Assembly (NCBI RefSeq): GCF_009931435.1 | Contig: NZ_CP043414.1 | Length of the DNA: 64,000 bases | Strand: one strand, 5' to 3' | Source: Escherichia coli | GTDB lineage: Bacteria; Pseudomonadota; Gammaproteobacteria; Enterobacterales; Enterobacteriaceae | Shown: piece by piece, positions 2,476 through 54,691 of the stretch | Layout of the letters: every line of letters begins with the position of its first letter | How positions within the stretch are numbered: position 1 is the stretch's first letter | Notes under the pieces: model-generated | Database searches by the model: none | Told to the model about the DNA's origin: nothing | The model's input: the letters and a program-made list of their open reading frames with translations, nothing else | Translations under genes and position numbers: made by a program

Positions 2476-2676
2476 ATGGATCATAGTCTTAATTCTTTAA
2501 ATAATTTCGATTTCCTGGCGCGTAGTTTTGCCAGAATGCACGCAGAAGGTCGCCCGGTCGATATTCTAGCCGTTACTGGTAACATGGATGAAGAACATAG
2601 AACCTGGTTTTGCGCACGTTATGCCTGGTATTGCCAACAGATGATGCAAACCAGAGAACTGGAATTAGAACATTGA
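2476..2676 (+). CDS. glgS: GlgS (surface composition/glycogen regulator), 66 aa
   Basis: Translation [66 protein letters not shown] recognised as GlgS; ATG at 2476. Confidence 0.9.
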
Positions 2677-2680
2677 TATT

Positions 2681-2702
2681 ACGGGCCGTCTGGCCCGTTT
2701 TT
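2681..2702. terminator. Bidirectional stem-loop between convergent glgS and ubiK
   Basis: Inverted repeat acgggccgtctggcccgt followed by T-run. Confidence 0.6.
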
Positions 2703-2710
2703 GTGGTGCT

Positions 2711-3010
2711 TTATTCTGCTTTATCAACCGGCGGGATAGCCGGAGGAGATTGAAGTTCTGCTACCGGATTATTGCGCGCTTCCAGTTCGCTGATGCGTTG
2801 TTCCAGTAACGCCAGTTTTTCACGAGTCCGTAACAGGACTTGCGTCTGAACGTCGAATTCTTCGCGGCTTACCAGATCGAGACGCGTCAACTGCGCTTGT
2901 AGGGTTTGGCGGATTTTTTTCTCCACATCTTCCCCGAACTCCCTGATTCCTTTAGGCATTGATTCGTGAACCTGGCGAGCGATTTGCTCAATTTTTTTCG
3001 GGTCAATCAT
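2711..3010 (-). CDS. ubiK: Ubiquinone biosynthesis accessory factor UbiK (YqiC)
   Basis: ORF track frame; likely start [15 protein letters not shown]...; coiled-coil BMFP-type protein; divergent from ribB as in K-12. Confidence 0.8.
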
Positions 3011-3129
3011 TGTAGTTTCCCTGTACTGATAGGTGTTGAGTGCCATTGTAGTGCGATAAGGGTAAGTCATAAACCAGAATAATGTGAAGCTATGCGTTGC
3101 TGCCGCTAATCATTAGCGTTATAGTGAAT

Positions 3130-3290
3130 CCGCTTATTCTCAGGGCGGGGCGAAATTCCCCACCGGCGGTAAATCAACTCAGTTGAAAGCCCGCGAGCGC
3201 TTTGGGTGCGAACTCAAAGGACAGCAGATCCGGTGTAATTCCGGGGCCGACGGTTAGAGTCCGGATGGGAGAGAGTAACGATTCTGTCGG
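3130..3290 (+). promoter_or_regulatory. FMN riboswitch (RFN element / SroG) in ribB leader
   Basis: Conserved RFN motifs agggcggggcgaaattccccaccggcggtaaat ... cagcagatccggtgtaattccggggccgacggttagagtccggatgggagag directly upstream of ribB. Confidence 0.8.
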
Positions 3291-3383
3291 GCATGGACCC
3301 GCTCACGTTATTTTGGCTATATGCCGCCACTCCTAAGACTGCCCTGATTCTGGTAACCATAATTTTAGTGAGGTTTTTTTACC

Positions 3384-4037
3384 ATGAATCAGACGCTACT
3401 TTCCTCTTTTGGTACGCCTTTCGAACGTGTTGAAAATGCACTGGCTGCGCTGCGTGAAGGACGCGGTGTAATGGTGCTTGATGATGAAGACCGTGAAAAC
3501 GAAGGCGATATGATCTTCCCGGCAGAAACCATGACCGTTGAGCAGATGGCGCTGACCATTCGCCACGGTAGCGGTATTGTTTGCCTGTGCATCACTGAAG
3601 ATCGCCGTAAACAACTCGATCTGCCAATGATGGTAGAAAATAACACCAGCGCCTATGGCACCGGTTTTACCGTGACCATTGAAGCGGCTGAAGGGGTGAC
3701 TACCGGTGTTTCTGCCGCTGACCGTATTACGACCGTTCGTGCTGCGATTGCCGATGGCGCTAAACCTTCTGATCTGAATCGTCCTGGCCACGTTTTCCCA
3801 CTGCGCGCGCAGGCGGGTGGTGTGCTGACGCGTGGCGGCCATACCGAAGCGACTATTGATCTGATGACGCTGGCAGGCTTTAAACCAGCTGGTGTGTTGT
3901 GTGAGCTGACTAATGACGATGGCACGATGGCGCGTGCGCCAGAGTGCATTGAGTTTGCCAAGAAACACAATATGGCGCTCGTGACTATTGAAGACCTGGT
4001 GGCATACCGTCAGGCACATGAGCGTAAAGCTAGCTGA
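3384..4037 (+). CDS. ribB: 3,4-dihydroxy-2-butanone 4-phosphate synthase
   Basis: ORF track 217 aa; sequence recognised as RibB. Confidence 0.95.
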
Positions 4038-4071
4038 AAACCGCTGCTTAATTTACCGCGTTAATCAAGAA

Positions 4072-4104
4072 ACCGAAGCTATTACTGGCTTCGGTTTTTA
4101 TTTT
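4072..4104 (+). terminator. ribB intrinsic terminator
   Basis: Hairpin accgaagct...ggcttcggt followed by tttttatttt. Confidence 0.7.
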
Positions 4105-4299
4105 GCTCTTGTTATGCAAGATGTTAATTCCTCTTCTCTTTCTATGAGAAAATTTCATTAATATCAGGCATTCTTTTCCATTATGATCAAAATCATATAA
4201 TTGTTCCGTTATTATGCGACCATATGAATATATCCGAAAAAGGATATGTGAATTTTATGCGCTAAATGTTTAGTATTGTTAAATATTAAGGGTAAAAGG

Positions 4300-4470
4300 A
4301 TGTTTATCGCCTGGTACTGGATTGTATTGATTGCTCTGGTTGTGGTGGGTTATTTACTGCATTTGAAACGTTATTGTCGGGCGTTTCGTCAGGACAGAGA
4401 CGCACTGCTTGAAGCGCGGAATAAATACTTAAACAGTACGAGAGAAGAGACAGCCGAGAAGGTAGAATAG
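4300..4470 (+). CDS. Candidate small single-pass membrane protein (56 aa)
   Basis: ATG at 4300 preceded by SD aaaagga; hydrophobic helix FIAWYWIVLIALVVVGYLL followed by charged tail; terminator-like hairpin 4487..4517 downstream. Confidence 0.45.
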   Translation: MFIAWYWIVLIALVVVGYLLHLKRYCRAFRQDRDALLEARNKYLNSTREETAEKVE

Positions 4471-4527
4471 GGCTTTAGTGAAGCTGGCAGAAGTTGTCCA
4501 TGCGCTGGACAACTTCTGATGTTGCTT

Positions 4528-37800: not shown

Positions 37801-37904
37801 ACGTTCCTCCTTTATATGAACTCACCGGAGCAGGCTCCGGTGAGGTGTTGTGAACTTAAGTCTGGACGAAATGCCCGAAAACGAAAGTTTGAGGCGTAAA
37901 AAGC

Positions 37905-54609: not shown

Positions 54610-54691
<82 letters not shown>

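Follow-up and report, generated by a model that had tools for sequence, protein, structure and literature searches.

The DNA analysed here is a 64,000-nt stretch of an Escherichia coli genome (contig NZ_CP043414.1), hereafter called the window. It carries on its plus strand ribB (3384-4037), the gene for 3,4-dihydroxy-2-butanone-4-phosphate synthase and the regulated gene of the leader described below. The ORF scored 288.5 bits against TIGR00506 (cut-off 177.45) and is also annotated by PGAP. The divergent ubiK ORF lies on the minus strand at 2711-3010 (150.4 bits against a cut-off of 100). In the closest strain (99.7% identity), the gene order is yqiK-yqiJ-glgS-ubiK / ribB-yqiD-zupT-ygiD-ygiC, and PGAP has placed an "FMN riboswitch" at the position matching window 3132-3280. 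The same PGAP feature was found at this position in other near-identical E. coli genomes.

Reading by eye, we have noted a putative sigma-70 promoter for the ribB leader at 3097-3125 (+), with a -35 hexamer TTGCTG (3097-3102), a 17-nt spacer and a -10 hexamer TATAGT (3120-3125). It fits the consensus at 8 of 12 positions; counted from the literature +1 (3132), its -10 hexamer spans -12 to -7. A consensus scan called no promoter for the leader, this candidate falling below the threshold of the scanner; we regard it as a plausible ribB leader promoter. At the other end of the transcription unit, the terminator scan called, at 4068-4099 (+), a hairpin resembling an intrinsic terminator, with a U-run after it.

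The surroundings of ubiK differ from those in K-12, where the fimbrial operon ygiL-yqiG(IS2-disrupted)-yqiH-yqiI lies between ubiK and glgS. This yqi operon is absent beside ubiK in the window and in strain 2017-02-2CC. The glgS-ubiK junction corresponds to window 2677-2711, with the stop codons of the two genes 33 nt apart. From about residue 78, the C-terminal tail of UbiK departs from the K-12 tail (NRSTEIKKQPDPETLPPTL), which puts the breakpoint of the presence or absence of the fimbrial operon inside the 3' end of ubiK.

The FMN aptamer upstream of ribB

A preliminary description of the region, made from the sequence, had placed a canonical RFN element (FMN riboswitch) in the ribB leader and proposed an Rfam FMN covariance-model search as its check. 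We have run this search on both strands of a 2-kb segment (2500-4500) with permissive filters and obtained a significant match to RF00050 (FMN) at 3132-3280 (+), which scored 120.9 bits where the gathering score is 66.2 (E = 3.5e-29). In the whole-window scan at the gathering threshold, the same match had E = 1.1e-27. It spans model positions 1-138 of 138, being thus full length and untruncated. This was the only FMN match in the 64 kb, and the minus strand of the window gave none. The aptamer ends 103 nt before the ribB start codon and on the same strand, which is the arrangement expected of an FMN riboswitch, namely in the 5' leader of a riboflavin biosynthesis or transport gene. Together with the TIGR00506 and PGAP assignments of ribB and of the riboswitch, and with the identity of the leader to that of K-12 MG1655 (see below), the RF00050 match confirmed that a canonical FMN riboswitch precedes ribB.

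Three sub-threshold matches to other Rfam families in the region were rejected as chance or partial resemblances. The AdoCbl-II riboswitch (RF01689) at 3210-3278 reached 22.3 bits against 36.5, contained many non-canonical pairs and was nested wholly within the FMN match. The match to mir-999 (4255-4297) scored 19.5 bits against a gathering score of 58, and that to the sRNA STnc240 (RF02074; 4036-4106) scored 29.8 bits against 55. The STnc240 match coincides with the ribB terminator hairpin at 4068-4099, and the likeness is probably only that of a terminator.

Elsewhere in the window, two Rfam RNAs passed their gathering scores. The ES173 sRNA was found at 37839-37902 (-) with 99 bits (gathering score 90). 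The naRNA4 family (CssrE, nucleoid-associated ncRNA) was matched at 54614-54690 on both strands, with 92.7 and 59.7 bits (gathering score 59.5), and this two-strand match suggests a palindromic repeat-type element.

Landmarks of the leader and alternative pairings

The E. coli K-12 ribB riboswitch has been studied by Eschbach et al. (2024) with a full-length transcript of 282 nt, comprising the leader and 10 codons (PMC11571811). Since this construct ends after codon 10, the published +1 corresponds to window 3132 and the ribB AUG to nt 253 (3384). With this numbering, all the landmarks named in that work are present in the window, including C175, G176 and U181 as published. The pause sites 175, 181 and 247-249 correspond to 3306, 3312 and 3378-3380 (PMC11571811), and the target sites of probes 137, 184 and 218 to 3268-3277 (nt 137-146, GGAGAGAGUA), 3315-3324 (nt 184-193, GGCUAUAUGC) and 3349-3358 (nt 218-227, UCUGGUAACC), respectively.

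The aptamer (3132-3280, +), identified by RF00050 and PGAP, comprises helices P1 to P6, with covariation in P2, P3, P4, P5 and P6. According to the structure line of the cmscan match, the 5' strand of P1 is UUAUUCUC (3134-3141, nt 3-10). Its 3' strand, GAGAGUAA (3271-3278, nt 140-147), is the switching strand. In the FMN-free state, the anti*-P1 hairpin pairs AGAGUAACG (3272-3280, nt 141-149) with CGUUAUUUU (3306-3314, nt 175-183) (PMC11571811), and free folds by RNAfold found this hairpin independently. For anti-P1 we infer a pairing of UCAGGGCGG (3140-3148, nt 9-17), a segment shared in part with the end of the P1 5' strand and with the J1/2-P2 region, with CUGCCCUGA (3339-3347, nt 208-216). 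In the FMN-bound state, the sequestering hairpin pairs CUGAUUCUGGUAA (3344-3356, nt 213-225) with UUACCAUGAAUCAG (3379-3392, nt 248-261); it was seen in both constrained and unconstrained folds. GUGAGG (3368-3373), the Shine-Dalgarno sequence, lies inside it, together with the start codon (AUG, 3384-3386) and codons 2 and 3. This hairpin is the published sequestering stem.

The P1, anti-P1, anti*-P1 and sequestering helices share strands, so the pairings that link P1 to the gene-control signal are mutually exclusive. In particular, the anti-P1 3' arm and the sequestering stem have nt 213-216 in common, an overlap through which the aptamer state is passed on to the start site. The preliminary description had confined the element to 3130-3290. 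The whole aptamer does lie inside this interval, but the expression platform lies outside it: the anti*-P1 partner, the anti-P1 3' arm, the sequestering helices and the zone of Rho-dependent termination fall within 3281-3392, and the platform reaches the first ribB codons at about 3392.

The calculated duplex energies were -17.9 kcal/mol for anti-P1, -16.7 for the sequestering stem, -8.4 for anti*-P1 and -7.2 for P1. When the Rfam aptamer structure was enforced and the rest of the leader was left to fold, the sequestering hairpin appeared. Unconstrained MFE folding of the leader did not recover the aptamer fold, nor was the leader more stable than its shuffles (z = -0.54); we have set the free-folding result aside as evidence either way. 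A model of the ON state, with anti-P1 and anti*-P1 enforced, left nt 217-225 paired with the AUG region, in conflict with the RNase H probing, where nt 215-227 are accessible in the absence of FMN (PMC11571811). Nearest-neighbour thermodynamics does not reproduce the switch, and we have given the published experiments priority over the model. Both misfits are expected for an RNA that owes its stability to a ligand, to tertiary contacts and to co-transcriptional kinetics.

Conservation of the leader

Comparison with K-12 MG1655 revealed no difference in the 252-nt leader (0/252, 100% identity). The two sequences are the same from 3082 through the ribB start, a substitution at 3081 being the sole difference in the ubiK-ribB intergenic region. 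In the ribB coding sequence, 24 of the 654 sites differ (96.3% identity), 23 of them at third codon positions, and RibB carries a single residue change, N193K. The contrast between the leader (0/252) and the third codon positions of ribB (23/218; Fisher p = 1e-8) points to constraint on the leader as a whole, and argues that purifying selection acts on all of it and not on the aptamer alone. Part of this contrast could stem from recombination with a boundary at the start codon. The distribution of the differences, together with the rarity of close matches over 3000-4100 (see below), is suggestive of a divergent ribB allele, or of such a boundary, on top of the constraint on the leader.

Megablast with the region 3000-4100 matched 5425 of the 5426 complete E. 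coli genomes; ubiK, the riboswitch feature and ribB are annotated beneath the matches. The leader was at least 99% identical in 4958 of these 5425. Over the entire 3000-4100 region, only 4 of the 5425 genomes reached 99% identity. One complete genome had no match, one copy of the region is listed as plasmid-borne, and two copies occur in at least one genome. Two more-divergent leader copies varied only in the P3 terminal loop (nt 49-50), in P4, where a G.U pair became A-U (nt 74), and by the loss of one U from the run that separates the Shine-Dalgarno sequence from the AUG. In the RefSeq record of K-12 MG1655, the ribB-ubiK intergenic region (NC_000913.3, 3184467-3184839) lists no riboswitch, sroG or RNA gene, unlike the PGAP-annotated genomes.

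We have then looked for relatives by scanning one genome per species with a 5' aptamer motif. This yielded at least 120 loci from many phyla, a sample that is neither exhaustive nor unbiased; among the matches listed, 34 of these had a ribB homologue within 1.4 kb downstream. The window leader was aligned by MAFFT with 16 gammaproteobacterial ribB leaders (17 sequences in total), from taxa including Escherichia albertii, Citrobacter, Enterobacter, Arsenophonus, Aeromonas, Rodentibacter, Shewanella and Vibrio. In the OFF-state structure, 88.9% of the alignment cells were paired, against 39-52% when the partners were slid by 1-3 columns. Compensatory changes were present at 20 pairs, and the observed values were never reached in 500 shuffles. 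These changes are located in P2, P3, P4, P5 and P6, as well as in two pairs of the weak inner stem that covers the Shine-Dalgarno sequence. P2, P5 and P6 were 100% paired, each with compensatory changes, and all six pairs of the main P4 helix were compensatory. P1 was paired in 94% of cells and showed one-sided changes only. Thus, among these 17 leaders, chosen through the 5' aptamer motif, the six-helix junction P1-P6 shows both pair conservation and covariation.

In the sequestering stem, 93.7% of cells were paired and 9 of the 13 pairs were invariant, while the 7 core pairs of anti-P1 were invariant in all 17 sequences. No covariation was seen in these two helices among the 17 leaders, because their pairs never vary; their support comes from conservation and from the published probing. 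The anti*-P1 helix was paired in 76.8% of cells, with 3 compensatory pairs in the cross-genus alignment. The linker aligns poorly, which probably accounts for this weak covariation, and conservation of anti*-P1 has been reported by Eschbach et al. from their own comparison (PMC11571811).

Two blocks downstream of the aptamer, GCCCUGAUUCUGGU (3341-3354) and ACCAUGAAUCAG (3381-3392), were invariant across Enterobacterales, Aeromonas, Rodentibacter, Shewanella and Vibrio, while the sequence between and upstream of them diverged freely in the 17-leader alignment. The invariance of UCAGGGC follows by construction from the motif used to select the loci; that of the downstream blocks does not. Among the matches listed, 18 of the 34 ribB-linked loci contained both blocks and 22 contained the nonamer ATGAATCAG; of the other 86 loci, 2 had both blocks. 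The first three RibB codons (AUG AAU CAG, Met-Asn-Gln) were invariant in 17/17 leaders, and may be fixed by the RNA switch, through the sequestering stem, rather than by the protein.

The E. coli K-12 ribB riboswitch is the closest known system. The window has the same sequence over the 252-nt leader and the first codons, the same flanking genes ubiK and ribB, and P1, anti*-P1, the sequestering stem, pauses 175/181/247 and the AUG at nt 253 all at the expected positions. There is no difference inside the element; outside it are the 3081 substitution, the 24 mostly synonymous ribB sites and N193K. The preliminary description had listed the element as expected rather than novel and as an internal control, and this identity bore it out: the ribB FMN riboswitch at 3132-3392 was already known, and this copy brings nothing new. 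As a control, it indicates that the frame and strand of the window were read correctly, a textbook cis-regulatory RNA having been recovered at the right coordinates. Its biological importance lies in the regulation of riboflavin synthesis and in its being a target of ribocil and roseoflavin.

Control of ribB translation and Rho-dependent termination

All this leaves us nearly certain that window 3132-3392 is the E. coli ribB leader, an FMN-sensing riboswitch that represses ribB at two levels when flavin is plentiful. That the match could be a chance resemblance or a decayed, non-functional aptamer is vanishingly improbable. The poor MFE z-score would fit such a reading, but it is usual for RNAs stabilised by ligand and tertiary contacts, and the reading is contradicted by the full-length model match at E = 3.5e-29, by the near-universal presence and conservation of the element in E. 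coli, by the covarying helices and by the identity with an experimentally active riboswitch (PMC11571811).

The outline of the mechanism is known from published work on this exact sequence. FMN binds the six-helix aptamer (3132-3280) during transcription of the leader and locks P1 (3134-3141 / 3271-3278). With P1 locked, the 5' part of the aptamer, UCAGGGC (3140-3146), would be unable to pair with GCCCUGA (3341-3347), and the freed GCCCUGA would take part in the sequestering hairpin. This hairpin (3344-3356 / 3379-3392) closes over the Shine-Dalgarno sequence and the AUG and blocks translation initiation. The restructured, untranslated leader would also expose Rho sites, and Rho terminates transcription before or at the ribB start. 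Without FMN, anti*-P1 forms between the P1 3' strand and 3306-3314, and the P1 5' region would pair with 3339-3347 (anti-P1). The start region then stays open, and ribB is transcribed and translated.

Our own analysis contributes the sequence features and their conservation; other groups, working with the identical sequence, have demonstrated FMN binding, the changes in RNase H accessibility and the pause sites (PMC11571811), as well as the Rho dependence (PMC5499598). Kswitch values of about 176 nM (P1) and about 206 nM (sequestering stem) were measured on this K-12 sequence. FMN protected from RNase H both nt 137-146 (probe 137, P1 3' strand) and nt 215-227 (sequestering stem), and raised the accessibility of nt 184-193 (3315-3324). 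Accessibility around nt 214 was low with and without FMN, which fits our assignment of anti-P1. FMN sensing was confined to a co-transcriptional window: stalling the elongation complex at pause site 175 gave a Kswitch of 23 nM, and stalling it at 247 gave values in the micromolar range (about 7.7 µM with probe 137 and about 1.1 µM with probe 184). Mutations of C175 and G176 altered sensing (PMC11571811).

The linker between aptamer and start site is C-rich and G-poor (3291-3360) and, judging by its base composition, is a candidate Rho utilisation (rut) region. Its 40-nt windows starting at 3291-3321 contain 12-14 C against 7-9 G, a bias that is suggestive of a rut site but modest. Hollands et al. 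(2012) are the primary source for the Rho termination sites and the rut of ribB, and are cited for its classification as directly controlled.

How Rho acts at ribB can be read in two ways. RNA polymerase occupancy across ribB is Rho-dependent (termination score 3.1), and in rho R66S mutant cells the control disappears (PMC5499598). The same study, like reviews of the field, classes ribB as subject to direct unmasking of the rut (PMC5499598, PMC12360218). The switch could instead be mainly translational, Rho termination being an indirect outcome of FMN-induced sequestration of the start site, which uncouples ribosomes from RNA polymerase. Such an indirect model was established for thiM in the very study that scored ribB (PMC5499598), and it would suit a platform whose most conserved part is the hairpin that sequesters the Shine-Dalgarno sequence and AUG, and whose linker has only a modest C bias. 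The single-molecule assays of Rho termination at ribB bear on both sides. In a minimal in vitro system, ribocil-C raised Rho termination by only about 7 percentage points on the stand-by route; yet this ligand-dependent termination occurred without ribosomes (PMC10085680). Since direct control is also the published classification, and nt 184-193, which precede the start site, become more accessible with FMN, we regard the indirect reading as unlikely, though not negligible, and retain a two-level switch in which Rho sites would be exposed along with start-site sequestration.

Premature Rho termination necessarily yields a fragment containing the aptamer, and the stable 5' fragment of the ribB leader is presumably the sRNA called SroG in older annotation. 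Trans-acting terminated riboswitches are known from Listeria and Enterococcus, and a trans role for SroG would resemble these. One could imagine that this fragment is the functional product, acting in trans as a base-pairing sRNA or FMN sponge, with the cis effect being secondary. The strong constraint on the whole leader, beyond the aptamer, would agree with such a role, but the conserved blocks outside the aptamer are all explained by alternative helices in cis that involve the ribB start codon. The name of plasmid pTXTL-sroGp2eGFP ties sroG to the ribB leader (PMC9204756); NC_000913.3 annotates no RNA gene there, and the papers examined describe neither a target nor a trans phenotype. We therefore consider a primarily trans-acting SroG highly improbable. 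Only slightly more credence, and still very little, is given to a second role in trans for the Rho-terminated aptamer RNA (SroG, about 3132-3280 and beyond), for instance in FMN buffering or mRNA pairing.

The cis-acting switch has counterparts that differ in ligand and aptamer. In E. coli thiM, thiC, thiB and lysC and in Salmonella mgtA, the state of the riboswitch likewise decides early Rho termination (PMC5499598, PMC12360218). Among these systems, thiM acts indirectly through translation, while mgtA is classed, as is ribB, as direct rut exposure (PMC5499598). The same aptamer family, ligand and logic (FMN stabilises P1 and expression is off) recur in Bacillus subtilis ribD (ribDEAHT). There, the FMN riboswitch controls an intrinsic terminator and antiterminator. 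For the E. coli leader, the terminator scan found no intrinsic terminator-like site of the ribD type in 3132-3383, and the U7 run at 3374-3380 is preceded only by the weak, G.U-rich inner stem. Unlike B. subtilis ribD, E. coli ribB uses sequestration of the Shine-Dalgarno sequence and AUG together with Rho (PMC11571811).
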